Of a DNA stretch of 43,488 nucleotides, positions 15,010 through 30,375 are shown piece by piece. The notes beneath the pieces were generated by a model that worked only from the letters and a program-made list of their open reading frames with translations, was not told where the DNA came from and did no database searches. Position numbers and translations under genes: made by a program. Position 1 is the stretch's first letter, and each line of letters opens with the position of its first letter. The stretch comes from a virus: IMG/VR virus record IMGVR_UViG_3300037422_000481. The stretch is one strand, 5' to 3'.

Positions 15010-15254
15010 AGGTCCTGTTCCTTGCAGTGGAGAATGTCGGCGCAGGCCTTGATCAGCCAGCGCTGTCTGGGTCGTGGCCCTGGCGCGTCCCGTCCGTCCA
15101 GCGTCGCGTAGAGGCCAGAGAGCGACGGCACGGGGAGGGGGCGTCCGTTGGGGCTCGGCCTCCGGCACGAGAGCCCGTCGCGGATGGCCTGCATCGAGAG
15201 TCGCAGCGCAAGGCGCCGGGCGCGGAAGTAGCGGCCTTGCCAGGGGGTCTTCAT
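14997..15254 (-). CDS. Small basic protein, 85 aa. Possible HTH regulator.
   Basis: Track ORF. The N-terminal ...RARRLALRLSMQAIRDGLS... is weakly XRE/Cro-like. It is the third ORF of the early/recombination block, after the two short ORFs 15453-15626 and 15265-15456. Confidence 0.45.
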   Translation of the reverse strand: MKTPWQGRYFRARRLALRLSMQAIRDGLSCRRPSPNGRPLPVPSLSGLYATLDGRDAPGPRPRQRWLIKACADILHCKEQDLWKP

Positions 15255-15726: not shown

Positions 15727-15766
15727 GTTGCCGCGATCCCTAGCCGCGCCCTACGCTTGCGGCAAC
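15727..15766. promoter_or_regulatory. Inverted repeat (8-bp arms gttgccgc / gcggcaac) spanning the stop codon of the lipoprotein gene. It could be a terminator or an operator at the late/early boundary.
   Basis: Arms at 15727-15734 and 15759-15766. There is no U-tract on either side. A G9 run (15709-15717) lies just beside it. Confidence 0.3.
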
Positions 15767-16269
15767 GGGGCGGGGCCCGGGGCATCCGGGACTCCGCCCT
15801 CGACTTGGTTCGGAGGTTCGGGGGCTCGCGGGGTGGAATCCGCGGCTTGGTTGTCCCGGGCCTCGGCTCTGCCCAGCACCAGGCGCAGCTCGAGGAGGAC
15901 CAAGCGCGCTGCGATCGCGAGCCCCCGCACGCGCGCCTGCGTCTCGAGGTCGTCCGTCACCACCACGGTGATGGGCGCGAGGAGCTGCAGGGCCAGGTCG
16001 ATCGACTGGTAGAGGTCGAGCGTCTCGGCCCCGCCGGCCAGGACGAGCTCGAGGTTCGCGTCGACGACGCCGAGGGCCTCGTGGATCGGCTCGAGCGTCT
16101 CCGCCAGAGACGGATCGAACTCTCCGTACCCCGCGATCACGTCACCGATCGCGGTTCCGAAGATCTCAACCTGCGCATGGACCTCGACCAGCTCAAGTCG
16201 GTTGCCGGCCGGCGTGCTCCGGCACGCACAGACCAGGGCGGCCAGGGTTGCGATGGGCGTCGTCTTCAT
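15751..16269 (-). CDS. Putative lipoprotein, 172 aa.
   Basis: MKTTPIATLAALVCAC is a signal peptide with an imperfect lipobox. ATG 16269 overlaps the TGA of the upstream membrane protein (ATGA) and is preceded by AAAGGAA. Confidence 0.6.
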   Translation of the reverse strand: MKTTPIATLAALVCACRSTPAGNRLELVEVHAQVEIFGTAIGDVIAGYGEFDPSLAETLEPIHEALGVVDANLELVLAGGAETLDLYQSIDLALQLLAPITVVVTDDLETQARVRGLAIAARLVLLELRLVLGRAEARDNQAADSTPRAPEPPNQVEGGVPDAPGPAPLPQA

Positions 16270-16595
16270 GTGTTCCTTTCTTCGTGGGGTTTGACCTGCC
16301 GCCCGGGCGCCTCGGTGCGCTCCCACATGCGGGCGATGCGCACGTGTTCCTCCGCCAGCACCAGAACGTTGTCGAGTTTGAGGCCTTGCTGGGTCATCCG
16401 CTCCGTGAACAGCGTCTCGAGTCTGCTCACGAGAGCCGGCGTTGCCTCCTGGGCCGCGGCCATGCGGTCCATCGCCTGCGTGATCCGTCGCAGAAAGAAT
16501 CCGATCGTGACGATGCCGCTGATCACGACCGCCATCAGCAGCCAAGCGACGACGCCGACGTCCTTGACGAGGTCAGGGGACGGAAACTGTTCCAC
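16266..16595 (-). CDS. Single-pass membrane protein, about 109 aa.
   Basis: One hydrophobic helix (VGVVAWLLMAVVISGIVTIGFFL) is followed by a charged helical region. GTG 16595 is the assumed start. It overlaps the giant ORF end by 23 nt. Confidence 0.55.
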   Translation of the reverse strand: MEQFPSPDLVKDVGVVAWLLMAVVISGIVTIGFFLRRITQAMDRMAAAQEATPALVSRLETLFTERMTQQGLKLDNVLVLAEEHVRIARMWERTEAPGRQVKPHEERNT

Positions 16596-19500
16596 GCGCG
16601 GTCGTGTCTGCGCTGAGGCGCCGGATCGCCGAGATTCTCCGGAGCAGCTCACGCGCGTGCTCGCTCTCCGAGCTGCGCAGCTGCGGTCCGAGGAAGGAAC
16701 CCGAGGGACGATAGGGCTCGTAGCGGTTCCGGATCACCTGCGCGATCGTGTCGGCCGAGAGTGCTCCGCGCAAGCTGCGCATGATCTCGCTGTCCGTGAG
16801 GCCGAGCCCTCGCGCGGCGCTGAGGGCCGCCTGGAAGTCCTCCCACAGGCGGCTCCTGGCGCGCTCGGTCGCTCCGTACGCCTCGACCAGGTCCTCGTCA
16901 CTCACGCGGCCGCGCTTGCCGGCCACGCGCGAGAGGATCGAGGTCGCGTCCGCGCTCTGCCGTGCAAACTCGCGCGCCAGCTGGTGCAGGGCCTGGCGCG
17001 TGTCGACCGAGCTCATGCGCACGCCCGAGAGCATCGCGAGCGTCTCCACCCCCGGATCGTAGACGCGGCCGTACTGCGTCACCTCGCCCTGCAGGCCGCG
17101 CGCGATGCGCCGCAGGCTCGTCGCGGTGCCCGGCTCGACCGCCTTGCCGAGGTGCGCCAGGACGTCGCGCGTTTGGGCAAGCGTGGAGTCCTCGGGGTCG
17201 TAGATCTGGTTGTCGAACTCGTCGCGGTTGTACCAGAGGGCGTCGATCACGGCCTTGGTCGCGATCTCCTCGGAGAAGAACGGCGCCAGCACGTTGGCGG
17301 CGCCGCGGCGCGCAGCGTCCTCCCAGTCGTCGCCGCGCAGGAAGGCCATCAGCGGCTTCTTGAGGTAGCTGTGCGGGTCGAGGTAGCTGATGTCGACGTA
17401 GGTGCGCGCGCCTTCGCTGTTCTCCGCCAGCCACAGGAGATCCGAGTCACGCGACCACGGCGGAAGGAACTTGCGCGCCGCCTCGTCGTCGTCGTCGGTC
17501 ATGCCCACGAGGTAGCGCGCCAGCGCTGCGAGTCCCGCTGTCCAGCCGGCGGCGAGGAAGGTGCCGGCGAGCCGCCGTGCGCCGATCACGCGCACACCGC
17601 TCGTCTGGCTCCCGAGCTCGCTGCGGATCTGCATGATCGTGTTCTTCGCCGTGCGCATCACCTCCCACGGGAAGCTCACGAAGGTGCCGACCAGCGGGAA
17701 CTGGCGCAGCTGGCGCACCGCGCGCGGCACCATCGAGTAAGTCGGGAAGACGTTGCGCACGATCTCGGCGGTCTTGCGCTCGAGCTCGTCGGCGCTGAGG
17801 CGCGGCTCGGCCTTGCGGTAGGCCGCCTTCTCGTTCTCCCACGCGAAGAGCTTCCAGAAGTCGTCCTGCGCGCCGTACACGCGCGAGAAGAAGTGGAGGG
17901 CACGCACGCCCTTCGCCTTGGCGCTGTCCGGATCGAACATGGACGCATCGGCGACGTGCACGTCCTCGAGCAGCGCGCGCAACTCCTGGCCGTGTGGGCT
18001 CTCGTGGATCACGCCGAGCTCGACTGCGCGGCGCAGGTAGGCGCGCCAAGCCGGCCGCGAGAGCGCGTGGAACTCCGCGGCCATGCCCTTGAGCGCCGGA
18101 GCGAACTTGCCGGCGCGGAAGTAGCCTTGCGCCAGGGCGAAGCCGGTGTTGCCGAGGTTGTTCCGGACCGTGGTCATGACCGAGAGCACGGTCTTCGAGT
18201 ATTTCGCGATCCCGTTGATTGCGACCCACCAGCGCCACGCCGTGTCCAGGCTCGCCGGCTCCATCTGCTTGAAGGCGTCGCGGATCTCCGGCGTGGTGTA
18301 GAGCCCGTTCAGCGGCGCGTAGACGGCCGAGGCCTCACCCGCGATGCGCGCCTTCGCCTCGGGCGGGATGGCCGGATCGTCGCCCTCCCACAGGTAACGC
18401 CCGAGACCATCGGCACGTACGGCCGCCAGGAACTCGTGGTTCCCGATCGTGAAGGCCATCTTCGAGACCGAGCGCATGTAGTTGACGCGCGCGTCCTTGT
18501 ACTCGCCCCACAGCGCGCGGATCTCGACCGGGACGTTCTTCCTGCGCTTCATGAAGGAGAGATCCTTCGTCCCAAGCTTCGCCTGGGCCATGACGCGCAC
18601 CGGCCCGTCGGCGGCCTTGCCCTCGAAGAGCAGCCGCTCGATCACGGCCTCGAGCGCGCGCGGCTGCTGGCGCGCCTGCAGCACGCCGATCTCGCGCTGC
18701 ACGCGCGCCATGCGCCGCTGCGTCGAGCCAAGCCGCGCCAGGTCCTTCTTGGTGGGCTTGGACACGGCCTCGAGCGCAGCCTCGAGGCCGGAGAGCGCGC
18801 CCAGCAGTCGGCCAGCTTGGAACTCGCGACGGGAGTACTCCTGCGCGATGAAGGCCTTCGCCGCGTTGCGCGCTTGCACGGGAACCTTCTCGGCCCACTG
18901 CGGGTCGTCGAAGGCCCGGTAGCTGCGCGTCGCGTAGAGCTCGAGGTTCTTCGTGATCACCGGCACCAGGCGCTGGTCGACGACGCCGCTCGAGATCAGG
19001 CGCTGCGAGAGCTCCTTGATGTGGTTGCGCGCGGCCTGCACGGCGTTGCCTAGCTTGACTGGGAGCGCGCCGCGCGCGGTCGGGTCCTTGAGGGCGTCGT
19101 CGACCAGCGCGACCTGGGCGGGCGTCAGCTTCTTGCCAAAGGTCGCACGCAGCGCCGCGACCAGGTCGTGCTCGATCTCCTCGGCGCGCCGCATGTGCGC
19201 GTTGATCCAGCCATCGCGCCGGATCTTCGAGGCGAAGGGCCCCTCGGGCAGTCCTGCGGCCGCGGTGAAGTTGCGGCGCCAGCCTCTACCGAGCGAGAAG
19301 AGCACTGGAGCGCCGCCGCCTTCGCTGAACTCGTTCGCGATCTGTTGCTCGATGGGCAGGTTCTCTTCGGCAATGAAGGACGCTTGCCCACCCGCGAGAT
19401 CACGCGCTCGAGCCGCGAGACCCTCAAGCCGTGCCGCCACCCGCGTTGGCTTCTCCTTCAGCACGGAGCGCAAGATCGCGACGGCGGTCGCGTCGCTCTT

Positions 19501-22500
19501 CCATCCCACGTCGATACCAGGCATGACGGCTTGCCGCAGAACGTCAGCCAGCGGCTGATTCGTCTGCACGACCTCGGCGGCTCCCTGAGCCACGTGAAGC
19601 ATCGTGTCCGCGAACCCGGGCGCGCGCGCCTTCAACGTGACGAGCGCCGGAAGGGCCCGCAGTAAGACGTTCCGAGTCGCTGGTGGCGTCTCCACGAGCG
19701 TCCGCACGTCGCCGATCACGCTGCCGAGCAGTGCGTCCTCGATGACCTGCTTCCCGCTCTGAGTCGGGATGCCGCGCCGTGGATCGAAGAGCTCGGCCAT
19801 GTCCCGTTGTCCCAGCGCACCGGCCCGCACCATCGTCCGCGCGATGTCTCTCGCCTTGCCCGCGTCGCCGAGCGCGTCACGCAACGTGCCTTCGCCGATC
19901 ACGCCCGCAATCGAGCTCGCGACCTCGGCCGTGATTTTCGATCCGCGCGACACGGCTTCGGTCGTAGCGCCCTTCCCGGTCGTAAGCGACTCGTTCAGGA
20001 CGCGCGAGAGCTCGCCAGGTGCGCCTTCGCGGCCTGGCTCGACGATGCGCACCAGAACCGGATCGGCGATCCCGAGCGGTTCGATGCCGAAGCGCTTGGC
20101 CGCCTTGACCATGCCCGCGCGAATCTCTTCCGCTTGCGGACCGGCTCGTGAGTAGGCGAGCTGCATCCCCATCGTGCGCGCATTGCCCCCGAGCACGACG
20201 CCCTTGCTCGTCACGATCGGAGGACCGTCGACCGGCGAGGGTGTGTCAGTCGTGAGCAGCGACACCTTGGGAGCGTTGGCGATCGCTCGCACTGTCTCCC
20301 GCATCGGCGCGCCCTCAACGGGATCGTCGTAGGGGCGCTCGTTCAGGTCGCCGGCCGGGTTGCGGACGAACCCGCGTCGCACGTCATGGCTCGGCACGAG
20401 CTCGCTGGCTGCCACGATGGCATAGGTCACGGGCAGGGTACGACCCTCGGCGAGTTCGACCGTCGATGCCTCCCCGGAGCGAACGAGGATTTCCAGTTCT
20501 TGTCCAGGCTGGATCCGGCTACCCTTGAGGGGTAGTCTTCCCCCGACGATGCCGCTTCCTGATTCCTTTCCTGCTGGAACAACCTTCTGGGATTGCAGTG
20601 ACGTTCCCGTGGTGGCCACTCCAGGGCTGGTCTGCACGGCCTTCGATGTGCCGGACGGGCGGCGTTTCCCCTGCACGACGGTCGATAGCGACGGCGTGCC
20701 GATCTCGGAGGCGGCCTTCCGCGCCATGGTGCCCAAGGCCATCGCTCGACTGGCCGCGTTCCAAGCCGAGTCGTAGACCGCGCGCTGCTTGGCCTCGAGC
20801 TGGTCGATGCGGCGCTGCTGCTCACCCGTACGTGGGCCTCGAGCGCGCTGCAACCGCTGCATCTCTTCGTACTCGAGATGGAGGCGCTCCTTCGCCTCGA
20901 TCATTCTAGGCACGTTGATCTGCACCTCGGCGTGCAGGGCACCCAGGTCGAAGTGCATGAGTATGTCGCGGTAGCCGGTCGTCACGATCGGCGCCGTGAA
21001 GTCGCGGAACTTCACCGGCTCACCGAACCGTCTGCGCAACTCGACGACGGCCGCTTCGGCCTGCTCGAGCGTGTCCACCACGACGGTGCCGCGCAGGATG
21101 TCGCGCACTCGCGTCGCGTCGCCTTGATAGTCGTGCAGCGCTTTCACCAGCGCCCGAGCCATGCTCTTCACGCCAGGCAATAACGGCTTGTGGTGCGAGC
21201 CCACGGCCTTCGCCACCGCGCGAATGGAGCGGCCGAAAGAGGGCTCGCGCCTTCGCGCCGCAGCCAAGAGCTTGACCAACGTCCGCCGCGCCCGCAGTTC
21301 GACGGCGCGCAGATCCAGTTTCCGCGGCTTGCGCTCCTTGGGCGGCGCAGCGGCGAGGCGTTCACGCTTCTTCTTGCCGCGCTGCCGGAATCCGACCCGG
21401 CGCGGGCGCGCCTCCAGCCCTTCGAGCTCGAGCTCCATACGCGAAGGCTGTATGCGCCGCGTGACCTCCAGGCGCGGGGGCTTCGGCAGCTTCGCGAGGC
21501 GGCGCTCGAGCACGCGGACTCGAGCCTCCGCGCCTGAGCGACCACGGAGTGCGCGGATCTCGGCCTCGAGCTTCCCGCGCTTCTGGCGCACGCGCTTCGC
21601 CTGCGGGCCGGTGAGAGCCTGCTGCGAGGGGATCCAAGTTGGTTGAGGGATGCCCCGTTGCGCTTCGCGCGCGGCCGGAACGGCACGCTGGCTGGGCTCT
21701 ACAGCCCTCTGCCGACGGGGAAGTTCTCCACGGACAGGAATCCGGCGTCCCTCTTCCGGCCATGCGGCGCTCGTTCCTGCCGGTGCGGCAGGGCCGGCCG
21801 CAATGGCAGCCGCTGCCGGCCTTCTCGAGGGACGCCGGTAGCCCTCGATCGTGGCGAAGGCCTGCTGCACGAGCCGCGCGATCTCTGGGATGCGCGCCGG
21901 CTCGATGACGATCTCCTGGTCGGTCTCGGCGAGTTCGTCCCTGAGCTCTCGCAGCGCCTTCTCCGTCGACGTCTCCAGGTGCACGCCCGCGCGGCGCACC
22001 ATCCGGATCAGCGCGTCGATCATGCGCCGCAGGAGGCCGGGGCGCTCCGCAGCTTTGCGGAAGCGCTCGCCCTCGAAGAGGAGCCCGCCGCGCTCTTCCA
22101 GGTAGTTCGAGACCGCCTCTTCCGCCTGGCGCTCTGGGCTCAAGCCCTGGGCCTTGTAGCGTTCCCTGACGTCGAGCTCGGTCGCCGCGAAGCCCTCCGG
22201 ATCGACCTCCTTCAGATCGACGGCGAGCTGGTTCGCGGTGTCGACGGCCGTGTCGCCAGCCATGTCCTCGCGCACGACCTGGGCGAGGTGGTGGTAGGCC
22301 TCGTGGAGGAGCAGCCGCCGCTCGAGCACCTTGTCCGCGGCCGCGACGTCGAAGACCAGCGCGCGCTGCTCGGCCACGTAGCCGGCAGGGGCCGCTCCGC
22401 GATCGCCCTCTTCTTCCTCCGTCGGTTCGTCGGTGTACTCGACGAAGACCGCTTCAGCGCCCAGGCGGCGCGCGCGCTCGGCCACGCGAGCCTGAGCGGC

Positions 22501-23772
22501 GCTCCGGGGCTCCACCACGGCGCCCGTGCGCCCCTGGCGGCCTAGGAAGGTTGCAGCGGCGCGGCGGCCACCTGCGGACGCCGGCGCGACGTAGGGGATA
22601 TCGTCCGGTGCAGAGCCCGGTGATGCATCGGGCACAGCCACGTCGCCTTCAGCGGCTGCGAATAGTCCGCGTGGTGTGCCTCGACCTTCGAGCTCTTGCA
22701 CACGGCGCAGGGCAGCTTCTTCACCAAGCCCCTGCGCACGTAGACGCGCAAGTAGCTGCGCGCGATCGCCCTCCGGCGCGTCTCGCCCACTAACGGGTGT
22801 GCCTTCCTCCAGACCCTTGTCTTCGCGTTCTGACACGGACGGCAGTACCCGCCGACGCCCTTCGGCGTCCGCGCGCAGTTCGGGCACAGACCGTCCTTCC
22901 GCCTCATGTTGTGGAACAGTACCGCCCCCAACCTCCGCCGTCGAGGCCAGGGCCGAGAGGAGTCCGCCAGCGACCGCCGGCACCACCAGGGCCTCCCCGC
23001 TGGCCCAGCGCTGCATGAGTTCTTCCAGGGGTTTTCTTGCCTGGTCATGGCGCGAGATGTAGCGCGCCGTGACGTCGGCCAGCACCTGCTGGAAGTTCTC
23101 CTGCAGCACCTCTTCACCGGCCTCGAGCGCGGCCGTGCGGATGAAGCGCGAGAGCATGCGCCCGCTCGCCTTGTCGGCGAGCCCGAGCACGCGCCGCGCT
23201 TGGCCGGCGATCGGGACCGCCTCGCTCGCACCCTCGATCACGCCCAAGAGCGCCGCGAGGAGAGCCGCGTCCTGTGCTTCCTCGGACTCCGGGTCCTCGA
23301 AGGAAGCCAGCGCCTCCTTGTAGCGCGGCCCGACGGTCGCCAGCACGCCCGAGGTGCCAGCCATGAGCGGCGCCGCTACTGGCGCGCTCGCGCCGAGACC
23401 CACGAGGCCCGCCGTGCCGAGCGCGGTCGCGCCCAGGAATCCAAGGCCACTGCCGACGCCCTCGACCGTCTTCTCGAAGAGCGACACGGGCGCGGCGCCA
23501 GCACGCTCGCGTTGTTGCCCGAGCCAGCGCGCGGCGTCACCCATGCGCGGGATGCCCAGTACCTCGCCGGTCTCGGCCGCGCCCTGCACGACCCCGAGCG
23601 CGCCCCGCGCGAGACCTCCGACGATCGTGGGCGGGACGCGCTTGATCTTGGGGCCGAAGAGCCTCCGCAGCTCTTCCTCGAGCGGATCCTCTTCCACCTG
23701 CGCAGCAGGAGCATGCGCGCCGCTGAACAACGTGCGCAGCTCCTGCTCGAGCGGATCCTCCGCGTCCCTCAT
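16573..23772 (-). CDS. Formal 2,399-codon ORF for a giant multidomain (polyvalent-type) putative internal-virion or ejected protein. It may not be one continuous gene (see the nested HNH gene).
   Basis: ATG 23772 (MRDAEDPLEQELR...) overlaps the TGA of the upstream gene (ATGA). The first 398 codons of track ORF 16573..24966 are shadow of gene 23769-25247. Contents:
- Gly/Ala-rich hydrophobic segments (about 23340-23480).
- HEAYH (22291-22305).
- An RSH-like segment (20857-21180).
- A ParB-like segment (20090-20439).
- About 1,100 unassigned C-terminal residues.
Third-position G/C collapses in this frame across about 22545-22925. Confidence 0.55.
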   Translation of the reverse strand: MRDAEDPLEQELRTLFSGAHAPAAQVEEDPLEEELRRLFGPKIKRVPPTIVGGLARGALGVVQGAAETGEVLGIPRMGDAARWLGQQRERAGAAPVSLFEKTVEGVGSGLGFLGATALGTAGLVGLGASAPVAAPLMAGTSGVLATVGPRYKEALASFEDPESEEAQDAALLAALLGVIEGASEAVPIAGQARRVLGLADKASGRMLSRFIRTAALEAGEEVLQENFQQVLADVTARYISRHDQARKPLEELMQRWASGEALVVPAVAGGLLSALASTAEVGGGTVPQHEAEGRSVPELRADAEGRRRVLPSVSEREDKGLEEGTPVSGRDAPEGDRAQLLARLRAQGLGEEAALRRVQELEGRGTPRGLFAAAEGDVAVPDASPGSAPDDIPYVAPASAGGRRAAATFLGRQGRTGAVVEPRSAAQARVAERARRLGAEAVFVEYTDEPTEEEEGDRGAAPAGYVAEQRALVFDVAAADKVLERRLLLHEAYHHLAQVVREDMAGDTAVDTANQLAVDLKEVDPEGFAATELDVRERYKAQGLSPERQAEEAVSNYLEERGGLLFEGERFRKAAERPGLLRRMIDALIRMVRRAGVHLETSTEKALRELRDELAETDQEIVIEPARIPEIARLVQQAFATIEGYRRPSRRPAAAAIAAGPAAPAGTSAAWPEEGRRIPVRGELPRRQRAVEPSQRAVPAAREAQRGIPQPTWIPSQQALTGPQAKRVRQKRGKLEAEIRALRGRSGAEARVRVLERRLAKLPKPPRLEVTRRIQPSRMELELEGLEARPRRVGFRQRGKKKRERLAAAPPKERKPRKLDLRAVELRARRTLVKLLAAARRREPSFGRSIRAVAKAVGSHHKPLLPGVKSMARALVKALHDYQGDATRVRDILRGTVVVDTLEQAEAAVVELRRRFGEPVKFRDFTAPIVTTGYRDILMHFDLGALHAEVQINVPRMIEAKERLHLEYEEMQRLQRARGPRTGEQQRRIDQLEAKQRAVYDSAWNAASRAMALGTMARKAASEIGTPSLSTVVQGKRRPSGTSKAVQTSPGVATTGTSLQSQKVVPAGKESGSGIVGGRLPLKGSRIQPGQELEILVRSGEASTVELAEGRTLPVTYAIVAASELVPSHDVRRGFVRNPAGDLNERPYDDPVEGAPMRETVRAIANAPKVSLLTTDTPSPVDGPPIVTSKGVVLGGNARTMGMQLAYSRAGPQAEEIRAGMVKAAKRFGIEPLGIADPVLVRIVEPGREGAPGELSRVLNESLTTGKGATTEAVSRGSKITAEVASSIAGVIGEGTLRDALGDAGKARDIARTMVRAGALGQRDMAELFDPRRGIPTQSGKQVIEDALLGSVIGDVRTLVETPPATRNVLLRALPALVTLKARAPGFADTMLHVAQGAAEVVQTNQPLADVLRQAVMPGIDVGWKSDATAVAILRSVLKEKPTRVAARLEGLAARARDLAGGQASFIAEENLPIEQQIANEFSEGGGAPVLFSLGRGWRRNFTAAAGLPEGPFASKIRRDGWINAHMRRAEEIEHDLVAALRATFGKKLTPAQVALVDDALKDPTARGALPVKLGNAVQAARNHIKELSQRLISSGVVDQRLVPVITKNLELYATRSYRAFDDPQWAEKVPVQARNAAKAFIAQEYSRREFQAGRLLGALSGLEAALEAVSKPTKKDLARLGSTQRRMARVQREIGVLQARQQPRALEAVIERLLFEGKAADGPVRVMAQAKLGTKDLSFMKRRKNVPVEIRALWGEYKDARVNYMRSVSKMAFTIGNHEFLAAVRADGLGRYLWEGDDPAIPPEAKARIAGEASAVYAPLNGLYTTPEIRDAFKQMEPASLDTAWRWWVAINGIAKYSKTVLSVMTTVRNNLGNTGFALAQGYFRAGKFAPALKGMAAEFHALSRPAWRAYLRRAVELGVIHESPHGQELRALLEDVHVADASMFDPDSAKAKGVRALHFFSRVYGAQDDFWKLFAWENEKAAYRKAEPRLSADELERKTAEIVRNVFPTYSMVPRAVRQLRQFPLVGTFVSFPWEVMRTAKNTIMQIRSELGSQTSGVRVIGARRLAGTFLAAGWTAGLAALARYLVGMTDDDDEAARKFLPPWSRDSDLLWLAENSEGARTYVDISYLDPHSYLKKPLMAFLRGDDWEDAARRGAANVLAPFFSEEIATKAVIDALWYNRDEFDNQIYDPEDSTLAQTRDVLAHLGKAVEPGTATSLRRIARGLQGEVTQYGRVYDPGVETLAMLSGVRMSSVDTRQALHQLAREFARQSADATSILSRVAGKRGRVSDEDLVEAYGATERARSRLWEDFQAALSAARGLGLTDSEIMRSLRGALSADTIAQVIRNRYEPYRPSGSFLGPQLRSSESEHARELLRRISAIRRLSADTTARGTVSVP
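20090..20439 (-). other. ParB-N-terminal-like (DdrB-ParB type) segment inside the giant ORF.
   Basis: YAIVAASELVPSHD...NERPYDD...GPPIVTSKGVVLGGNARTMGMQLAY matches the ParB-like layout (...SHD...PR.R...GxPIV...xxGNxRxxA) seen in polyvalent proteins of phages and plasmids. By-eye assignment. Confidence 0.45.
20857..21180 (-). other. RelA/SpoT-homologue (RSH) synthetase-like nucleotidyltransferase segment inside the giant ORF.
   Basis: The segment reads GVKSMARALVKAL...VRDILRGTVVV...TTGYRDILMHF...AEVQINVPRMIEAKERLHLEYEE. It parallels the RSH synthetase motifs in the same order: RxKxxxSxxxK, DxxGxRxI, GYxSxH, EhQIRT, HxxYK. Confidence 0.55.
22291..22305 (-). other. HExxH zinc-metallopeptidase-type motif inside the giant ORF (LLLHEAYHHLAQ).
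   Basis: The codons cac gag gcc tac cac were read on the minus strand. The preceding ~70 residues (AEAVFVEYTD...GYVAEQRALVFDV) resemble the start of a zincin-like domain. This is motif-level evidence only. Confidence 0.45.
22542..22907 (-). CDS. HNH-type endonuclease-like zinc-finger protein, 121 aa. It is encoded out of frame inside the giant ORF and may be a mobile homing-endonuclease cassette.
   Basis: MRRKDGLCPNCARTPKGVGGYCRPCQ...KKLPCAVCKSSKVEAHHADYSQPLKATWLCPMHHRALH matches the common phage HNH pattern C-x2-C...(E)AHH-x-DY-x-x-PL-x-x-x-WLC-x-x-x-H-x-x-x-H. This is the C-terminal part of track ORF 22542..23231. Third codon positions are almost all G/C in this frame, but mixed in the giant-ORF frame over the same bases. 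Confidence 0.7.
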   Translation of the reverse strand: MRRKDGLCPNCARTPKGVGGYCRPCQNAKTRVWRKAHPLVGETRRRAIARSYLRVYVRRGLVKKLPCAVCKSSKVEAHHADYSQPLKATWLCPMHHRALHRTISPTSRRRPQVAAAPLQPS

Positions 23773-25247
23773 GACCTCTTCGTCTTGATGCGTTTCTGCT
23801 GCGCCGTCACCTTGCGCTGCAGGCGGCTTCCCTTCGGTTGCTTCGGCGGGTTCTCGATGAACTCGCGCAGCTGCTTGCGCTTCTCGGCCGGACTGAAGTC
23901 GCTGCGCTCTTCCGTGACGCTGCGTGGGCCCTCGGTCGTGCTCGTGCCGAGCCACCTTAGCTCCGGCTTCTCGGGTGCAGCCTCGCGCTCCGTGAAGTCG
24001 CGCTGCTGCCATGCGGCCGAGAGTTCCTGCTTCACGTCCTCCGGCAGAGCCTCGACGTCGGCGCGCTCGAGCACGGCCTTGACGGCCTGCACGACCTCTT
24101 CGGTGCCGCGCGCCGCGCGCACGACCTCGAGCAACTCCGCGCGCACCTCGGGCTCCAGCGGTCGCACGGTGCCGCCTGGCGCCTCGGGCGGGCCAGCCTC
24201 TTCGGGCTCGTCGAAACGCCCCGTCAGCGTGTAGCGCGCGAAGCGGTCGAGCAGCGCGGCTTGCTCGGCCTGCTTCATGAATATGAAGCCCTGGTCCTTC
24301 ATCAGATCGGAGAGCAGGCGCTTCCTCAGCTCGACTTCGTCGTGCTGGTTGGGCGAGAACATCAGCCCGGAGATCTCCGCGAGTGCCTTCTCCGGGTCGA
24401 CCACGCGCCAGTTCATGCCCCACTGCTCGAGCAGGAAGTTCGCTTTGGCTTGGCGCTGGCGCCACTCGCTCCCGGTGATGTTTAGGTAGGGCGGCGGAGC
24501 CGGCAGCGCGATCGCTTCGCTCGCGGACTGGTGGAAGCGCAGGAAGGTCGCCTGGACCGAGCGCTCGCGCGCGATCGTCGCGCGCTCTTCCATCAGGAAG
24601 CGCTCGAGCACGGCCGGGTTGACGTCCGGCCGGTTCTCGTCCTCGAGATCGGCCAGCATCTGCATGCCCTGCTCGGGCGAGAGCACGGGCTCCTCGCCGT
24701 TCGGGCCAGGCTGCATCGCGTCCTGGATCTGGCCACGCACCGCGGCCGTGCTCTTCTCGAGGCCGCGCTTGACCGCCTGCTGCTGCAGGAACTGCATCGC
24801 GTCGGCGCGGTCCTCGGGGGCCATCGTGGCCATGGCCTCGCGGATCCGCGCGTTCAAGCCCAGGATGGGAGCGATCGAGGCGGCGAAGATCTGCGGCACG
24901 TGGGCCGTGTTCGCAGCGGGCATGATCGACCCGGGCGCGCGTCCGCGGATCGCGTCCATGGCCCACATGTCGAAGTCGGTCTTCGCCTGGCGTTCGCGCA
25001 GCTCGCGCGCGCGGTCGTCCTGCTCGAAGCGGAAGCGCTCCTGGGCCTGCGTCAGCGCGGCCCGCTGCGTCTCGCCGGCACGCGCCTCCTGGCGGTCGAA
25101 GCGCGCTTCGCGCCGCAGCGCCAGGTCGTGCTCGCGCTCGCCCTCCTTCTTGCGCAGCTTGAAGAGCCGCTCGTCCTGCAGGAAGCCGGCGATGCCCTTG
25201 CCGGTCTCGCTGACGCCCTCGACGATGTCGGCGATGACGCTCGGCAG
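23769..25247 (-). CDS. Putative internal virion protein, 492 aa if started at CTG 25247 (399 aa from the first ATG at 24968).
   Basis: Track ORF 23769..24968. The 279 nt upstream are open in the same frame with near-uniform G/C third positions (LPSVIADIVEGVSETGKGIAGFLQDERLFKLRKKEGERE...). They contain no ATG, GTG or TTG. CTG 25247-25245 sits 7 nt after AAGGAG (25260-25255). Confidence 0.6.
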   Translation of the reverse strand: MPSVIADIVEGVSETGKGIAGFLQDERLFKLRKKEGEREHDLALRREARFDRQEARAGETQRAALTQAQERFRFEQDDRARELRERQAKTDFDMWAMDAIRGRAPGSIMPAANTAHVPQIFAASIAPILGLNARIREAMATMAPEDRADAMQFLQQQAVKRGLEKSTAAVRGQIQDAMQPGPNGEEPVLSPEQGMQMLADLEDENRPDVNPAVLERFLMEERATIARERSVQATFLRFHQSASEAIALPAPPPYLNITGSEWRQRQAKANFLLEQWGMNWRVVDPEKALAEISGLMFSPNQHDEVELRKRLLSDLMKDQGFIFMKQAEQAALLDRFARYTLTGRFDEPEEAGPPEAPGGTVRPLEPEVRAELLEVVRAARGTEEVVQAVKAVLERADVEALPEDVKQELSAAWQQRDFTEREAAPEKPELRWLGTSTTEGPRSVTEERSDFSPAEKRKQLREFIENPPKQPKGSRLQRKVTAQQKRIKTKRS

Positions 25248-25251
25248 GGGA

Positions 25252-25944
25252 CTACTCCTTGTCGCCGAACATGGCCATGATCAGCTGGAAGATCCCGCTC
25301 GCGTCGGTCCCGCCGCCAGCGCTCGGATCGGAACGCGCACCGGACATGAGCTCGAGCAGCGGGCTGTAGTGCGTCGCGCTCTCCTGCGCGAAACGCGCCT
25401 GGTAGAACTCGCCGAGATCCTGGAGGGCGTTCGCCTCGGCCGCGGCGAAGTGCGAGTAGAGCCCCGCGCGCTGCGCCGAGAAGGAGCTGAAGAGCTCGTC
25501 CATCTGCCGGTCGCTGGCCTCACGCACGCGTCGCTCGCTCGACTCCGCGATCGATGTGCTGCCAAGCCCGCGACTGGTCAGGCGCTGGCGCGTCGCACCG
25601 ATCTCTGAACGCTCGCGTTCGGCAACGCGGCGCTGCCCGGTGCGCAGGAGCCGCGACGTCTCCCCGAGAGCCTCGGCCTTGCCCTTTCGGATCGTCTCGA
25701 GCGCTTTCGTCTTCTCCGCGAGCGCAGAGCCGTAGAGCTGGTGTAGCCGACCCTGCTGCTTCCCGAGCACGATCTTGCCGCGCCGGCGTGACAGCCGGCG
25801 GTTCTTGTTCGCGGCGTGGGCCTTCGACGCAGAACCGCCGACCGAGCTGCCCAACGCAGCGATCGCGGCGATCAGGGCGGCGTAGGGACAGGTGAGCGCA
25901 GCCAACAGTGCAGCCAGGAAGAGCAGCGTCGTGTACCCACCCAT
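25252..25944 (-). CDS. Membrane-anchored putative internal virion protein, 230 aa.
   Basis: Track ORF. The N-terminus is hydrophobic (TTLLFLAALLAALTCPYAALIAAIAALG). ATG 25944 follows GGAGG and shares a base with the upstream TGA (TGATG). Confidence 0.65.
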   Translation of the reverse strand: MGGYTTLLFLAALLAALTCPYAALIAAIAALGSSVGGSASKAHAANKNRRLSRRRGKIVLGKQQGRLHQLYGSALAEKTKALETIRKGKAEALGETSRLLRTGQRRVAERERSEIGATRQRLTSRGLGSTSIAESSERRVREASDRQMDELFSSFSAQRAGLYSHFAAAEANALQDLGEFYQARFAQESATHYSPLLELMSGARSDPSAGGGTDASGIFQLIMAMFGDKE

Positions 25945-26357
25945 CAGACCTCCTTCACGTGCTGAGCACGCTTCAGGGCAAGCAACAGCTCGTCGAACCG
26001 CTGCACCACTTCGTTGACCTTGTCCTGGATCAGTTGCACCTGCGCCTGGGTCGGAGGACTCGAGATCGCCTGCGTCAGCTTGCCGCCCGTGGCGCGCACC
26101 GGATCAGCCAGCTTGAGAGCGAGGCGACGCGCTGCCGTGCTCAAGCCCGAGCCGGCCATCAGCGTGGCGAGCGCGGCGATGTCGACGACCAGGTGGTCCT
26201 CCTCGACAGCGAGCGGCATACCGATCAGGAGTTGCGCCTTGCCGCCACGAATCACGAGCGGCGCGACGAATGCCATGGAGCCGGCGCGCGCAGAGCGCGG
26301 GTCGTAGCCGCCCTGCTGCACGAGGGTCGTCCCTACCTTGGTTGCCTTGCGTGTCAT
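25944..26357 (-). CDS. Hypothetical protein, 137 aa.
   Basis: ATG 26357 overlaps the TGA of the large tail gene (ATGA). Internal start of track ORF 25944..27389. Confidence 0.6.
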   Translation of the reverse strand: MTRKATKVGTTLVQQGGYDPRSARAGSMAFVAPLVIRGGKAQLLIGMPLAVEEDHLVVDIAALATLMAGSGLSTAARRLALKLADPVRATGGKLTQAISSPPTQAQVQLIQDKVNEVVQRFDELLLALKRAQHVKEV

Positions 26358-29300
26358 CCCCAGAAGCTCCGATCTCGTACCCGCCCGGCGCGGTGCGCCC
26401 AATAGTTGCCGCTCACCAGCGCCCAGCGCTGCCCCACCGCGGCGTTGCCGAGACGGGCGTAGCAGTAGGCGCCGCGCACGCGCTCGAGGCGCGTCGCGTT
26501 GCGTCCCGGCTTCAGGCGCGCGAAGGTCTGCGCTTGGCCGATGCGGCTCGGCTCGTTGGTGCCGAAGAGCTCGAGCGTCGCGCCTCCGTCCGAAACGTCG
26601 TCGAGCACGAGCGTGAAGTGCCCGAAGCGGTACTCCCATTGGCTGTTCGCGCCCTCTGGCGCCAGCGGCCCGATCGTGACCGTGGACTTGATCGGGTTGC
26701 CGTCGTCGTCGTTTCGGTTGGGGTCGATCCTGCGCACGAAGCCGTCCTGGCAGCCGAGCACGACGCGCCTCTCCGCGATCGTGTTTCCCTCGAGCGCGTG
26801 CACGGAGGTGGGCTGAATCCCGAGCGTGTAGTGATCGGGATGCCAGGCGCCGAACTCCTCTTCCCAGAAGTAGTGCTCGATCTGGGTCGTGTGCACGCCG
26901 AACGGGATCACGATCACGTAGAGCCCGCCTTCCTCCTGGCTCCACTGCAAGCGCACGAAGTGGGTTTCGAAGTCGATCGCCCGCAACCGAGCCGGGATGT
27001 TCATGGAGAGCGCCTCGAAGCTCCCGTCCGTGCCGACGCGCGCCACCTCGGCCGTGGTGAGCATCACGTACGTGCGCCCGAACGGGTCGCGCGTCCAGGC
27101 GCGCCCGAACGCGATCCCGTACTGTGAGCTGAGAACGTCGATCTGTCCGTCCGCCGCCGGATCGCCGACCACCTTGTGGATCGAGGTCGTCGTGCCGATC
27201 AGCGCGAAGTCGTCGGTGAGCGGAATGAAGGCGTTGATCGGTTCCGCGATCGCGCCGATGAAGTCGGCCTGGGCTCCGTTGATGCTCGCGATCACGCTGT
27301 CCTCGGGCGGCGCGTCGTCCCAGTCGAAGGGATCGTCCTTCGCGCTGGCGTACCAGATCTGCGGGTTGGATGGATCGCCGAAGGCCCACAGGCGCCCGCG
27401 CCAGAGCTCGAACACGCGCAAGCGCGGGGGCAGCACGCCCTTCTTCGTCTCGAACTTCGTGACCGTGTCGGTCTCGGCGTCATAGACCGCGTACTTGTCG
27501 CCGTCGCTCCAGAAGATCTTCCCGAAGCCCGCCGCCGCGGTGACGAAGCGCGCACTCGAGGAGAGCGCGCCCGCGCCGCCGGTGGGCGTGACCGCCGGCC
27601 CACCCTCGACCAGGCGCACGATGTTGCCGCCTGCAGCTCCAAGCCAGATCGGAACGCGCGGCACGTCCGTGTTGTGCGTGGTCGAGACGAGCTTGACTTT
27701 CTGCAAACAGAGCGTGGTCGTCGAGAGTCCGTCGATGCTCGTGACATCGAGCCCGACGTAGACGAACTCGCTGCGCAAGGCGGTGACCGCGATCTCGGCC
27801 TCGGGGTACTTGGGCGCATTCGGAGCGGGCGCGATCGCGAAGGCGGGGAACGACGCCCCGACCGTGGCGGCGCTCAAGACCTCGAGCAGGTTCGAGCCAA
27901 GCCGGAAGATCGCGAAGGTCGCCCCGAGCGAGGTCGAGTCAGACTTGACCGGAACGTAGAGCGTCTGGAAGTGGTCGACCGCGATGCGCGGGAACTGGTC
28001 GGCCAGGTCATAGGCCGTCCCGAAGGACGCAGTGCCGGCGTTGCTGAGCGCGACCCCGTTGTCGTTGAGCCAGCGCACGTCGGCCACGCCAGGAGCTGGC
28101 GGACCGCAACAGGCGACCACGTGCGGGATCAAGTCACTCGTGTCAAACACCGACTTCGGGAGCGTCGCGATGCCGTAGCCGATGCCTCCCACGTCCGTCA
28201 GCACGATCGAGAGCGCGTTGGTCTGGGCGTCCCACTTGGCGACGATCCCGTCGACGTCGAGCAGTTTGTTCGGGTCCGCGTTGAATGCCCCAGGCCCAGG
28301 GCCGTTGCTGCCGGCCCAGGGCACCTGAAAGCGGCGCAGCGCTGTGGCGCCGTCGCCGTAGGGGTGCACGAAGTTCGAGTCGGTGTCCCCGACCTCGTTG
28401 CCACGCTTGTAGGTCGCGCCGTCATCGAGCAGGTGCCCGATGCCCCAGCGGCGCGCGACCACGGCCTCGAGCTGCTCCATGATCGAGTCGCTGCTGCCGG
28501 ACCAGGCCGTGTCCGGGTACTGGTAGGCAACACCGGTCGTGTGGTCGCTGAAGAGTCCCGACGTCGTCGGGGCCGCGCGGTCGCGCAGCTCGAGCACGAT
28601 GATCTCGTGCACGTAGCCCTTGAAGTAGTTCCAGGTCGTCTGGTCGTCGCAGCGTCCGATCTTGCCGGCCTTCGCGCTCTCGATCGGGCGCGCGTTCCAC
28701 TTGTCGATGGGACAGCCGTTCCAGCGGAAGAGCGAGCTCTCGCCGCCCCCCCCGGCGACGATCGCGTGCTGCCCTGCGCACACGTACGTGAGCACGCCCG
28801 AGGCCGGGGCGAGCCCCGCGCCACCCGCGCCGGAGTGCGTCTTGACGTCGTAGATCGCGGCCTCGATGTCAGAAGGCGCCGTGCCACCCGCGCCGGAGAG
28901 GGCATCCTCGTTGATCGAAATGTGCCCCTTCGTCGCGGCCCCGGGCACGGCGCCGTCAGGCCTGTTCGCGATGATGGCCCGGTCGAAGGCGAGCTGGTTC
29001 GTCTGCGCCAGCGTGTTCTCCTGGTCCTGCCACAGGAGGCAGCCCATCGTCGCCGATGGCTCGGGCGTCACCACCATGATCACGGCGAAGGCCGCGCCCT
29101 GGTAGCCGGGCAAGAGCGAGAGCTGCTGGTCCGCGAAGGCGGCCGTGACCCCGGGGTTCGCCAGCGACACAAGCGCGTTGTCGATCCCGTCGAAGTAGAT
29201 CGCCGGCTTGCCCGCCAAGGGTCCGCGCTTGTGGTAGTGCGGCGAGCTGTTGCCCAGGCTCTCGTCGCCGTACAGGTGGCGCCGGATGCCGAGCGGCTTG

Positions 29301-30280
29301 AAGTCCGCGCAGAGAGACACGCGCAGATCTGCCGGCTCTCCGACCAGGTGCTCTTCGGCCAGCTTGTCGGCCCGGAACCACGACCAGAGCTTGATGTCGC
29401 CGTTGCGTTCGTAGTCGTCGACGTCGAAGCCACGATTGACGTTCTTCGTGTTCTGGTTGGGGATAAGGCCGCGGTTCGCAAAGGGCGGGTGGGTCGTGAA
29501 GATCGAGCCGTTCACGTCGATCGCGAGCGCGCGCGACGGGTAGGGCACGCTGAAGATGCGCTGCTCGATCGGGTTGACCGCCTCGACCACGTCGTAGACC
29601 ACACAGTAGGAGAACTGGAACTCGGGGTCGTCTTGGGTCGTGTAGAGGCGCCCGTCGTGCCAGCGCATGTGCGTGACGAACCGGCCTGGCTTGATCACCC
29701 ATTGCAAGTCGTAGACGAGGCGTCCGTCTTCCTCGAGCCCTGGCACCCACGACGCGATCAAGGCCGAGCGCGGGTCTCCACCCTCGGCGACGCCGACGAA
29801 GACCTGGCGCGCGCTCGAGAGCTCGAGCGTGCGGATGATGCCGTTCCGGTCGTCAAGCGGGATGCTGACGGAGAGCGTGCGCTTGCCGTCGGGCGTGTAG
29901 AGCGACCAGGCCGTGTTGCCGTCGAGCGCGTAGACGTTGCCACGCGCGTCGCACTTCAGGTCCCGGCAGCCGAGCTTCTGGCTAGGAACCGCGACGGACC
30001 ACTCGCTCGTGTTGTTCGGGTTCGCGATGGTCGCGAACGTGACCTGCTTCTTCGCCTGCACGATCGAAGCGATCTCATTGACGGGGGCCGCGGCGAGCGC
30101 GGTCGTGCCGACCTTGCTCTGCCCGGAGCGCTGCCCGCCGGTCGCGCGCCGCGTCAGCGGATGCTTGCCGCGCACGTCGCCGCCCTCGCGGTAGGTGAGC
30201 GGCGGCTGGTGCGCGAGCGAGAAGCGCTCGGAGAGCCCGCCGAATGGGAACGTGAGCGGCTGGGTGTCGCTGATGCTCAC
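26354..30280 (-). CDS. Large tail protein, 1,308 aa, in the position of a podovirus tubular-tail/nozzle protein. It has an inserted LamG/concanavalin-like segment.
   Basis: Track ORF 26354..30298. GTG 30280 overlaps the TGA of a 32-codon ORF (GTGA). The central stretch KPAIYFDGIDNALVSL...FAVIMVVTPEP...LLWQD...GHISINEDAL...FKGYVHEIIVLE follows the LamG-type jelly-roll pattern. Confidence 0.6.
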   Translation of the reverse strand: MSISDTQPLTFPFGGLSERFSLAHQPPLTYREGGDVRGKHPLTRRATGGQRSGQSKVGTTALAAAPVNEIASIVQAKKQVTFATIANPNNTSEWSVAVPSQKLGCRDLKCDARGNVYALDGNTAWSLYTPDGKRTLSVSIPLDDRNGIIRTLELSSARQVFVGVAEGGDPRSALIASWVPGLEEDGRLVYDLQWVIKPGRFVTHMRWHDGRLYTTQDDPEFQFSYCVVYDVVEAVNPIEQRIFSVPYPSRALAIDVNGSIFTTHPPFANRGLIPNQNTKNVNRGFDVDDYERNGDIKLWSWFRADKLAEEHLVGEPADLRVSLCADFKPLGIRRHLYGDESLGNSSPHYHKRGPLAGKPAIYFDGIDNALVSLANPGVTAAFADQQLSLLPGYQGAAFAVIMVVTPEPSATMGCLLWQDQENTLAQTNQLAFDRAIIANRPDGAVPGAATKGHISINEDALSGAGGTAPSDIEAAIYDVKTHSGAGGAGLAPASGVLTYVCAGQHAIVAGGGGESSLFRWNGCPIDKWNARPIESAKAGKIGRCDDQTTWNYFKGYVHEIIVLELRDRAAPTTSGLFSDHTTGVAYQYPDTAWSGSSDSIMEQLEAVVARRWGIGHLLDDGATYKRGNEVGDTDSNFVHPYGDGATALRRFQVPWAGSNGPGPGAFNADPNKLLDVDGIVAKWDAQTNALSIVLTDVGGIGYGIATLPKSVFDTSDLIPHVVACCGPPAPGVADVRWLNDNGVALSNAGTASFGTAYDLADQFPRIAVDHFQTLYVPVKSDSTSLGATFAIFRLGSNLLEVLSAATVGASFPAFAIAPAPNAPKYPEAEIAVTALRSEFVYVGLDVTSIDGLSTTTLCLQKVKLVSTTHNTDVPRVPIWLGAAGGNIVRLVEGGPAVTPTGGAGALSSSARFVTAAAGFGKIFWSDGDKYAVYDAETDTVTKFETKKGVLPPRLRVFELWRGRLWAFGDPSNPQIWYASAKDDPFDWDDAPPEDSVIASINGAQADFIGAIAEPINAFIPLTDDFALIGTTTSIHKVVGDPAADGQIDVLSSQYGIAFGRAWTRDPFGRTYVMLTTAEVARVGTDGSFEALSMNIPARLRAIDFETHFVRLQWSQEEGGLYVIVIPFGVHTTQIEHYFWEEEFGAWHPDHYTLGIQPTSVHALEGNTIAERRVVLGCQDGFVRRIDPNRNDDDGNPIKSTVTIGPLAPEGANSQWEYRFGHFTLVLDDVSDGGATLELFGTNEPSRIGQAQTFARLKPGRNATRLERVRGAYCYARLGNAAVGQRWALVSGNYWAHRAGRVRDRSFWG

Positions 30281-30375
30281 TCGCGCACCTTCCACCATAG
30301 GCCGTTCACGAGCTCGACCCGCCCGATGACTCGGCGCTTCTCCACGTCGACGCCTAGGTTCGGCTCTTCGCTCAC
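30277..30375 (-). CDS. Micro-ORF, 32 aa (VSEEPNLGVDVEKRRVIGRVELVNGLWWKVRE).
   Basis: Bounded by GTGA overlaps at both ends (30375/30372 and 30280/30277). Lies in the frame of track ORF 30277..30588. Confidence 0.4.
   Translation of the reverse strand: MSEEPNLGVDVEKRRVIGRVELVNGLWWKVRE

Follow-up and report, generated by a model that had tools for sequence, protein, structure and literature searches.

The viral record IMGVR_UViG_3300037422_000481 of IMG/VR, a stretch of 43,488 nucleotides (nt) with a GC content of 68% that is called the window below, contains an unusually long open reading frame (ORF) on its minus strand. This giant gene runs from an ATG at 23772 to a TGA stop at 16575-16573 and comprises 2,399 codons plus the stop. 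The uninterrupted frame extends beyond the gene start and spans 24966 to 16573, and the GC content by codon position shows that the coding frame changes at about 23770, where two genes in different frames meet; the ATG of the giant gene overlaps the stop of the upstream gene (ATGA). The in-frame GC content at third codon positions (GC3) is 0.8-0.97 across 16573-23772 and dips to 0.58-0.68 only in three low-complexity linkers at amino acids (aa) 241-420, 661-720, and 1021-1080. The chance of 2,399 stop-free codons at the base composition of the window is about 10^-22. Related proteins that were retrieved are numbered P#### and the loci of relatives L### (L001 being Pseudoalteromonas phage vB_PunP_Y3). 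One of these proteins, P0005 (2,805 aa, from the representative library), is colinear with the giant protein in four blocks of 43-63% identity. Because such a colinear single-protein relative exists, the ORF is one gene and not several, and 16573-23772 is a real gene encoding one polypeptide of 2,399 aa. The coordinates given in a preliminary description made from the letters alone were therefore right (codon periodicity, P0005), and the case it had considered, in which the ORF breaks up into separate genes, did not arise, as P0005 is colinear and the HNH gene lies outside the ORF.

The long ORF could alternatively be an artefact, either of genes fused by an assembly or sequencing error or of an accidental frame in GC-rich DNA. 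High-GC DNA does yield long spurious ORFs, such as the 1,098-aa antisense ORF 15757-19053, and GC3 dips at three places. On the other hand, the codon periodicity keeps to a single frame throughout, each dip falls in a low-complexity linker, P0005 and P0006 are both colinear single proteins, and 58 related IMG/VR ORFs are equally long, which leaves an artefact barely credible. The antisense ORFs within the gene (e.g. 21643-22545 and 22906-24234, both on the plus strand) were rejected as mere shadows of the coding frame in GC-rich DNA, since homologues keep the minus frame in these places. No DNA-level match to the giant gene was obtained by megablast against 50,697 phage records, NCBIfam gave no match to the whole protein or to eight pieces of it, and a word-indexed protein search with the whole protein gave only 4 matches. 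Single-protein pattern scans of genome contigs and viral contigs found no close relatives. The phage belongs to a lineage without a close cultured relative. There is no meaningful tandem repeat within the gene, and no promoter or terminator signals above chance were seen around its 3' end. The parts of the giant gene and its neighbours are listed in Table 1.

Table 1. Position of the giant gene, its parts and neighbouring genes in the window, with the basis of each assignment.
Feature	Coordinates	Strand	Basis
Giant gene, putative polyvalent virion protein	16573..23772	(-)	Continuous in-frame GC3; ATGA overlap with upstream gene; colinear with P0005
N module (aa 1-300)	22873..23772	(-)	Hydropathy peaks; homologous N modules in relatives
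Low-complexity Glu/Arg/Ala/Gly linker (aa 301-419)	22516..22872	(-)	GC3 0.58-0.68; region not conserved
HExxH domain (aa 420-650), candidate zincin-like metallopeptidase	21823..22515	(-)	Invariant residues and AlphaFold2 (AF2) model
Arg/Lys-rich basic linker (aa 651-829)	21286..21822	(-)	Read from sequence; partly kept in P0009, P0132
Tas1-like RelA/SpoT homologue (RSH) pyrophosphokinase domain (aa 830-1080) with conserved Ser/Thr/Gly-rich tail	20533..21285	(-)	PDB 6ox6 match; family invariants
ddrB-like ParB domain (aa 1109-1243 by Pfam), extended by helices up to about aa 1480	19333..20505	(-)	PF18763; P0002/P0004 alignment
C module (aa 1480-2399), conserved all-alpha virion-protein module	16576..19335	(-)	phrog_22602; homologues; AF2; BFVD; IMG/VR
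TerL	39761-41326	(-)	Pfam and PHROG
1,314-aa probable tail protein	26354..30298	(-)	Homologous to large gene before small-gene trio in L003, L005, L009, L010, L011
137-aa protein, first of three small genes	25944..26357	(-)	Frame and GC3; no family match (Pfam, PHROG)
230-aa protein, N-terminal transmembrane helix	25252..25944	(-)	Hydropathy 2.0-2.3 over aa 5-28; homologue is the L005 225-aa gene at the same position
492-aa gene, third small gene, probable CTG start	23769..25247	(-)	Open frame and high GC3 to 25247; AAGGAG
Spanin-like pair	15751..16535	(-)	Translations: 89 aa with N-terminal transmembrane helix; lipobox-like MKTTPIATLAALVCAC

Domains of the giant protein

The enzymatic middle of the protein includes two domains with significant family matches. 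The RSH segment has Tas1 (6ox6) as its sole match among PDB sequences, with E 5.7e-9 from the single sequence and 1.2e-26 from a 19-sequence family profile, and 10 of the 19 family members match Pfam RelA_SpoT (PF04607). All residues invariant in the family are kept (D891, R894, G933 and D936 of the G933-Y-R-D936 motif, E949, Q951, K961, and H965), and both catalytic motifs are present, DxxR (D891/R894) on a beta-strand and ExQ (E949/Q951). A search of the representative library with the giant protein returned 953 proteins at E<=1e-3, nearly all of them via this domain. RSH domains fused to MuF in phages (Apk2) synthesise (p)ppApp in vitro and are temperate-phage toxins with immunity proteins (PMC12226406). 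By likeness to Tas1 and Apk2, the product of the RSH domain in the giant protein would also be (p)ppApp. The apparent linker behind the RSH core (aa ~1021-1075, 20548-20712 (-)) is conserved in the family as aSE-x-G-x-P ... RG-x-S-x-SQA ... G(M/T)PSTS, and the element G[MTI]P[SP]T[SF] occurs as a single copy about 230-250 aa past the RSH start in 70 of 145 homologues. Regulation through this conserved tail is conceivable, as is cleavage within it.

The ddrB-ParB domain that follows matches PF18763 over profile positions 2-119 of 121 (aa 1109-1243) with 59.1 bits against a gathering cut-off of 27.6 and E 6e-16. The arginine motif of the ParB/Srx superfamily is kept as VLGGNARTMG at aa ~1193-1202, corresponding to GGNARTMG in P0002 and GGNSRTMS in P0004, and the ParB-associated extension (aa 1260-1480) is shared with the same two proteins. 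The domain may be catalytic or may bind nucleotides or DNA. A ddrB-ParB domain lies on the same chain in 36 of the 145 Tas1-like RSH proteins (e.g. P0022, P0052, P0095, P0110, P0005), mostly about 10-25 residues after the RSH domain, and this recurrent pair may work on one nucleotide pathway.

The HExxH domain contains HEAYH at aa 490-494. H490, E491, H494, E552, and Y557 are invariant in 9 relatives, with E552, downstream of the HExxH motif, as the candidate third metal ligand. In the AF2 model (predicted local distance difference test, pLDDT, 78; predicted template modelling score, pTM, 0.73), a helix and a three-stranded sheet are followed by a long helix that bears the HExxH motif (model residues 61-85). 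A zincin-type peptidase is plausible. The word-indexed protein search with this domain gave no match. One candidate relative, SmPolE (PDB 9j3g), which matched aa 538-605 at a single-sequence E of 1e-4, was judged spurious, since the match is lost with a 9-sequence profile and the name was not found in the literature.

The N module has Gly/Ala-rich hydrophobic segments by hydropathy at aa 106-139, 170-188, and 261-279. At its start, a motif of 11 residues is present twice, as DPLEQELRTLF at aa 6-16 and as DPLEEELRRLF at aa 29-39 (window 23656-23757 (-)). At the same N-terminal place, other motifs are duplicated in relatives, namely LRVLRP in P0005 and P0006, L-x-A-x-E-x-WAS in P0001, and DDPWxART in P0002, each in two copies. 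This suggests that the duplicated motif is a lineage-specific docking peptide for an oligomeric partner. Homologues of the N module were found in P0005, P0006, P0009, P0035, P0114, P0160, P0175, P0180, P0188, and P0244.

The C module (920 aa) matches phrog_22602, 'virion structural protein', at E 2e-55. By tblastn, it is 24-30% identical over 650-850 aa to proteins of Cellulophaga phages phi18:3, phi13:2, and phi19:3, and it also matches Pelagibacter phage HTVC027P and Pseudoalteromonas phage vB_PunP_Y3. Its homologues gp123 of phi18:3 and relatives are annotated as virion proteins from tandem mass spectrometry (MS/MS). The word-indexed database holds 129 homologues, and in IMG/VR 183 loci encode the module, mostly as the end of ORFs of 1,500-4,000 aa. 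The AF2 model is nearly all helical (pLDDT 89, pTM 0.86); with Foldseek, it matches 71 predicted viral structures in BFVD, mostly C-terminal pieces of giant phage proteins, and the phi19:3 protein at E 1e-31 and a template modelling (TM) score of 0.72. The C module is likely the carrier or packaging part of the protein. None of the Pfam LPD models is matched by the N or the C module. The C module was also considered as LPD38 (PF18857), which P0002 carries at aa 3745-3927. This was rejected, as there is no Pfam match, neither hhalign against P0002 nor a hidden Markov model of the C module connects the two, and only a motif resemblance by eye is left.

By comparing these results with the preliminary description, its Gly/Ala-rich hydrophobic segments near the N-terminus, its RSH-like nucleotidyltransferase segment, and its ParB-like segment were all found where significant matches or hydropathy peaks place them. 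Domain searches along the ORF thus bore out two of the three families it had named (ddrB-ParB and RSH). For the metallopeptidase-type HExxH motif, the motif itself is present and invariant in nine relatives, whereas a significant profile or fold match to a known zincin was not obtained. The approximately 1,100 residues that it had left unassigned now divide into the ParB-associated extension and the conserved C module.

Carrier modules and cargo in related proteins

The N and C modules also occur together with little between them. P0160, P0175, P0180, P0188, and P0244 have the N module, and a search with the C module retrieved all five of them; P0160 (1,491 aa) aligns with the N module and over 99% of the C module. 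Proteins of this group are about 1,100-1,500 aa long, which leaves no room for an HExxH-RSH-ParB cargo. Because proteins with both modules exist that are too short for the cargo, the enzymes of the giant protein are regarded as cargo inserted into a two-module carrier. Other arrangements vary the same parts: in P0132 the HExxH domain is fused straight to the C module, in P0009 the N module and HExxH domain are followed by GNAT and ART-PolyVal, and P0005 keeps the order of the window protein with a RadC/JAB insert. Many C-module proteins of 900-1,600 aa carry ART-PolyVal, GGDEF, SLT, or RadC at the N terminus. Among the IMG/VR ORFs with the C module, 58 of 81 have more than 700 residues ahead of it, and the longest ORF reaches 4,027 aa. 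A Pfam search of 23 such front parts (the sequence ahead of the C module) found ART-PolyVal in 10 ORFs, LPD1 in 6, LPD5 in 5, InPase in 4, ddrB-ParB and methyltransferases in 3 each, and MuF_C, LPD3, and a 2H/Acb1-like domain in 1 each. The giant gene thus exemplifies a widespread plan in which a conserved carrier is combined with exchangeable conflict enzymes. Its particular cargo combination is rare, and among the sequences retrieved only P0005 also joins this HExxH domain, RSH, ParB, and the C module.

The same comparison can be read in another way, with the giant protein as mainly a structural protein of the ejectosome or tail channel, its enzyme inserts being relics or acting only in the producing cell or capsid (e.g. 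in assembly or DNA condensation). Conservation is indeed found in the N and C modules, cargo-free versions exist, the C module is large and all-alpha as in known ejection proteins, and binding to packaged DNA is conceivable for the basic linker at aa 651-829. On the other hand, the RSH invariants, the GGNxR arginine of the ParB domain, and the HExxH motif are all retained, the cargo of relatives consists of known conflict domains (ART-PolyVal, InPase, 2H/Acb1-like), and the RSH and ddrB-ParB pairing in 36 of 145 proteins argues for a selected function. A purely structural role is thus unlikely.

Virion operon and remaining genome

The giant gene is the last gene of a virion operon. The ORFs of the minus strand follow the order TerL, 716 aa, 183, 459, 403, 176, 165, 161, ~214, ~466, 1,314, 137, 230, 492, and the giant gene. 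The 176-aa protein has a weak cement-protein match. No Pfam match was found for the ~466-, ~214-, 165-, and 161-aa genes, and no Pfam, PHROG, or PDB sequence match for the 1,314-aa protein. The 403-aa protein has a homologue at the capsid position of L005, the sole link found for the portal and capsid candidates, and tblastn with these candidates returned nothing. A carrier gene behind a large tail protein and three small genes (~100, 150-225, and 331-611 aa) is also found in L003, L005, L008, and L009, and this synteny favours the layout. In L005, the large gene homologous to that of the 1,314-aa protein comes after a Pfam SU10_adaptor gene, a podovirus marker. The cultured phages that carry the C module are podoviruses (Pachyviridae, vB_PunP_Y3, and pelagiphage HTVC027P), and microscopy has shown a podovirus among the Pachyviridae, to which phi18:3 belongs (PMC8776804).

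These data also bear on whether the giant protein could be a tape-measure-like or tail-tip protein of a long-tailed phage. Great length and Gly/Ala-rich hydrophobic segments are typical of tape-measure proteins too, and Pfam and PHROG searches assigned no tail-gene family in this phage. On the other hand, the same searches detected no tail tube, sheath, or tape-measure chaperone family, the cultured C-module phages are podoviruses, and the syntenic L005 has the SU10-type adaptor, which makes a long-tailed phage very improbable.

The third small gene is open with coding-type GC3 for 93 codons before its first ATG (24969-25247 (-)), without an ATG, GTG, or TTG in that stretch. A CTG at 25247 sits 7 nt after AAGGAG, and the gene likely starts at this non-canonical codon. 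The preliminary description had given the sizes of the neighbours as 137, 230, and 492 aa, which is right, the last requiring the CTG start, and had called the 230-aa protein membrane-anchored, in agreement with its N-terminal transmembrane helix. Of the T7-type layout it had proposed, the position of the giant gene behind the tail and small genes holds, whereas the labels portal, scaffold, and capsid were not confirmed by searches; with TerL upstream, the layout is as P22-like as it is T7-like.

Downstream of the giant gene, an 89-aa transmembrane protein (16266-16535 (-)) is followed via an ATGA overlap by 15751-16269 (-), whose product starts with MKTTPIATLAALVCAC and is lipoprotein-like. 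From their translations, the two look like an i-spanin and o-spanin pair that marks the end of the virion operon, and a Gram-negative host is therefore implied. The spanin-like genes have no family matches, and ORF 15751-16545 gave nothing in PDB; this mechanically called 264-aa ORF is probably not the real gene. These downstream genes are of importance for a further explanation, namely that the giant protein is a phage-borne polymorphic toxin like MuF-Apk2, carried by particles or released at lysis against competitors, with its immunity encoded elsewhere. Among solved structures, the RSH domain is closest to Tas1, an interbacterial toxin, and both (p)ppApp synthesis and immunity proteins are known for the MuF-RSH toxins of temperate phages (PMC12226406). 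However, the giant protein has no MuF domain by Pfam, its toxin-type domain is internal and not C-terminal, and the genes downstream are spanin-like and not immunity genes. No (p)ppApp hydrolase or Tis1-like gene was seen among the scanned ORFs, and no integrase among this subset of all ORFs. A toxin of this kind is accordingly a rather remote prospect.

Several other features of the genome were recorded. The ends of the window overlap by exactly 127 bases, and this 127-nt sequence lies at 1, 42448, and 43362, consistent with a circular assembly of 43,361 base pairs with a k=127-like overlap, although the repeat may equally have misled the assembly. About 94 copies of a 15-nt unit (consensus CTCGACGGTGCGAGT) are present in two blocks within 41780-43216, inside a tandem duplication of about 914 nt (41534-42447 versus 42448-43361, 87% identical), and the 'ORFs' 41471-42409 and 42505-43323 are nothing but the array in translation, read as VETRT repeats. 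Situated immediately upstream of TerL, the array could have a function in packaging or regulation. A 217-aa protein (9859-10512 (+)) has a Cpn10/GroES domain (Pfam E 1.9e-8); cpn10 is a core gene of the flavophage family Pervagoviridae, which has a portal cluster in common with Pachyviridae (PMC8776804). Past the lysis genes lies a recombination and nuclease cluster (14140-15168, 12971-14569, and 12039-12452, all (-)) with a RecE-like exonuclease (DUF3799, phrog_412, E 2e-61), a phrog_3657 protein, and an HNH-type endonuclease (phrog_93), whose gene sits outside the giant ORF and does not split it. In L005, a DUF3799 gene likewise comes right after the giant gene. A 211-aa protein with a 'hydrolase' PHROG match (10833-11468) has nothing in PDB, and there are no tRNAs.

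Proposed role and comparison with known systems

We propose, with a probability of roughly 0.7, that the product of the giant gene is a polyvalent protein of the phage type in which two virion modules form the carrier, that it is packaged and ejected, and that its cargo acts in the host. Multiple conflict-type domains stand in one ORF, the ORF is phage-encoded beside virion genes, and the DdrB-ParB hub domain is among its domains. The polyvalent reading had already been offered in the preliminary description and is borne out by the Pfam match of ddrB-ParB, the match of RSH to Tas1, and hallmark domains in 23 related giant ORFs. The homology of the C module to virion proteins annotated from MS/MS, the operon-closing position, and the gene order that recurs in relatives indirectly support an internal, ejected virion protein.

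Several points weigh against this proposal. The portal (716 aa), scaffold, and capsid (403 aa) candidates were not identified by Pfam, PHROGs, tblastn, or a PDB sequence search. With Foldseek against PDB, the C module has no solved-structure match at E<=1e-3; a T7 core protein (9jyy_I) appears at rank 7 with E 1.3 and a TM score of 0.12, which is not evidence of a relationship. The HExxH domain matches no zincin in Pfam at E<=1 (including MPTase-PolyVal), in the PDB-sequence profile search, or with Foldseek against PDB, where its top match, 6cyy_A (PrpR; E 0.6, probability 0.54), is a lead only. The RSH segment of the giant protein itself falls short of Pfam RelA_SpoT. Moreover, a fully active Tas1-like enzyme would deplete the ATP that the phage itself needs. 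Because such an ATP drain would harm the phage too, the RSH activity must be latent in the polyprotein, brief, or aimed at another substrate.

According to the proposed course of events, the giant protein would be made late and packaged in the particle via its C module, together with the 137-, 230-, and 492-aa proteins. At infection, the packaged proteins would exit through the tail, like gp14-16 of T7 and gp7/20/16 of P22, and the membrane-anchored 230-aa protein and the hydrophobic N module may help to cross or line the envelope. The enzymatic middle would arrive in the cytoplasm, where the putative HExxH peptidase would cut the low-complexity linkers and free or activate RSH and ParB. The RSH domain could then act as a pyrophosphokinase on adenine nucleotides and, to judge from Tas1 and Apk2, make (p)ppApp, and the ParB domain may bind or hydrolyse nucleotides or DNA. 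Their joint effect, within minutes of the start of infection, would be to weaken both the metabolism of the host and its defences based on nucleotides or restriction. We hypothesize further, and tentatively since we consider it a good deal less probable than the proposal above, that the largest ejection protein has become a general carrier in a large podovirus-like clade, with the N and C modules as a delivery scaffold that accepts nearly any enzyme between or ahead of them, here loaded with a Tas1-type synthetase and ddrB-ParB that stay inactive until the HExxH peptidase switches them on after injection. It would mean that an alarmone pulse and ATP drain are the first act of infection, that this is the first virion-injected alarmone-synthetase effector, and that the RSH-ParB pair is tied to a single nucleotide pathway.

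The giant gene is easy to read in this respect, as its carrier is known in cargo-free form, the three-enzyme insert is compact, the linkers are plain, and the operon position is T7/P22-like. It makes testable whether podovirus ejection proteins serve as delivery vehicles, whether a built-in peptidase releases the cargo, and whether phages employ a (p)ppApp synthetase of the toxin type to take over the host or to counter its defences. Hundreds of uncultivated phage genomes are recognisable by the C module, through which injected effectors could be traced. To our knowledge, almost none of the polyvalent proteins predicted in 2017 as injected multi-effectors has been tested.

Phage-type polyvalent proteins adjoin virion or late genes and hold two to 15 distinct conflict-type domains, with metallopeptidase (MPTase), RelA/SpoT, and DdrB-ParB among them (Iyer, Burroughs, Anand, de Souza, and Aravind, 2017; PMC5512222). 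They are predicted to be packaged, injected, and processed by the MPTase, with RelA/SpoT altering host physiology and DdrB-ParB acting on nucleotides or DNA; those with RelA/SpoT come mainly from Spirochaete and epsilonproteobacterial prophages (PMC5512222). The course of events proposed here agrees with that model. The giant protein has in common with them the conflict domains beside virion genes, DdrB-ParB, RelA/SpoT, and a candidate MPTase, and its relatives carry ART-PolyVal, InPase, LPD1/3/5, and MuF_C. It differs in its HExxH domain without an MPTase-PolyVal match, in its 920-aa C module and N module without an LPD match, and in belonging to a phage of 68% GC. DdrB of phage P1, from the dar antirestriction operon, is the ddrB-ParB prototype; it is processed and packaged into heads and has its ParB domain with a C-terminal MPTase (PMC5512222). 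P1, however, is a myovirus, the order of ParB and MPTase is the reverse of that of ParB and the candidate MPTase in the giant protein, and neither RSH nor a C module is described there (PMC5512222). Tas1 and MuF-Apk2 share the RSH-fold pyrophosphokinase domain, and Apk2 is associated with phage particles through MuF. In the giant protein, on the other hand, RSH is internal to a virion carrier and not C-terminal behind PAAR (type VI secretion system) or MuF, no immunity gene was recognised, and the domain has a conserved Ser/Thr/Gly-rich tail followed directly by ddrB-ParB.

Ejection proteins have 138, 196, 747, and 1,318 aa in T7 and 229, 471, and 609 aa in P22. The giant protein resembles gp13-gp16 of T7 and gp7, gp20, and gp16 of P22 in its position past the tail genes and as the last and largest of a size-increasing run (137, 230 with a transmembrane helix, 492, and 2,399 aa). 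T7 gp16 has an N-terminal SLT lytic transglycosylase, as do some relatives with the C module. In contrast, no sequence or fold homology of these ejection proteins to the giant protein was found (Foldseek against PDB, Pfam, PHROG), they have no counterparts of the cargo, and TerL precedes the virion module here, which is the P22 arrangement, whereas in T7 it comes last. The N4 virion RNA polymerase gp50 is also a giant protein of a podovirus head that is injected with the DNA, as is predicted for the window protein, and it has been counted among the polyvalent proteins, its MPTase lying in the part required for encapsidation (PMC5512222). However, the window protein has no RNA polymerase domain and no detectable homology to gp50, and no N4-like phage appeared in tblastn.

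Closer in sequence are the Cellulophaga phages phi18:3, phi13:2, and phi19:3, whose C module is homologous, although none of them has the combination of HExxH and RSH. In vB_PunP_Y3, separate genes (ORF30/ORF31) encode the polyvalent part and the C module, as against a single gene in the window. There (L001, 4260-17634), a 3,421-aa 'DdrB-like ParB' protein stands directly upstream of the C-module protein, and the two together are a split polyvalent protein. The C-module protein, WPJ21803, was published as an 'ADP-ribosyltransferase' and auxiliary metabolic gene. Only aa 52-130 of it match ART-PolyVal, weakly and below the Pfam cut-off, and the remaining ~850 aa are the C module. On the whole, the giant gene belongs to a class that was described in 2017 along with its domains and predicted role, ORFs of this size with a C module are common in viral metagenomes, and the gene is not a new kind of system. 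What goes beyond the published description is the clean organisation into N carrier, cargo, and C carrier, with a Tas1-type RSH and a ParB domain as the insert.

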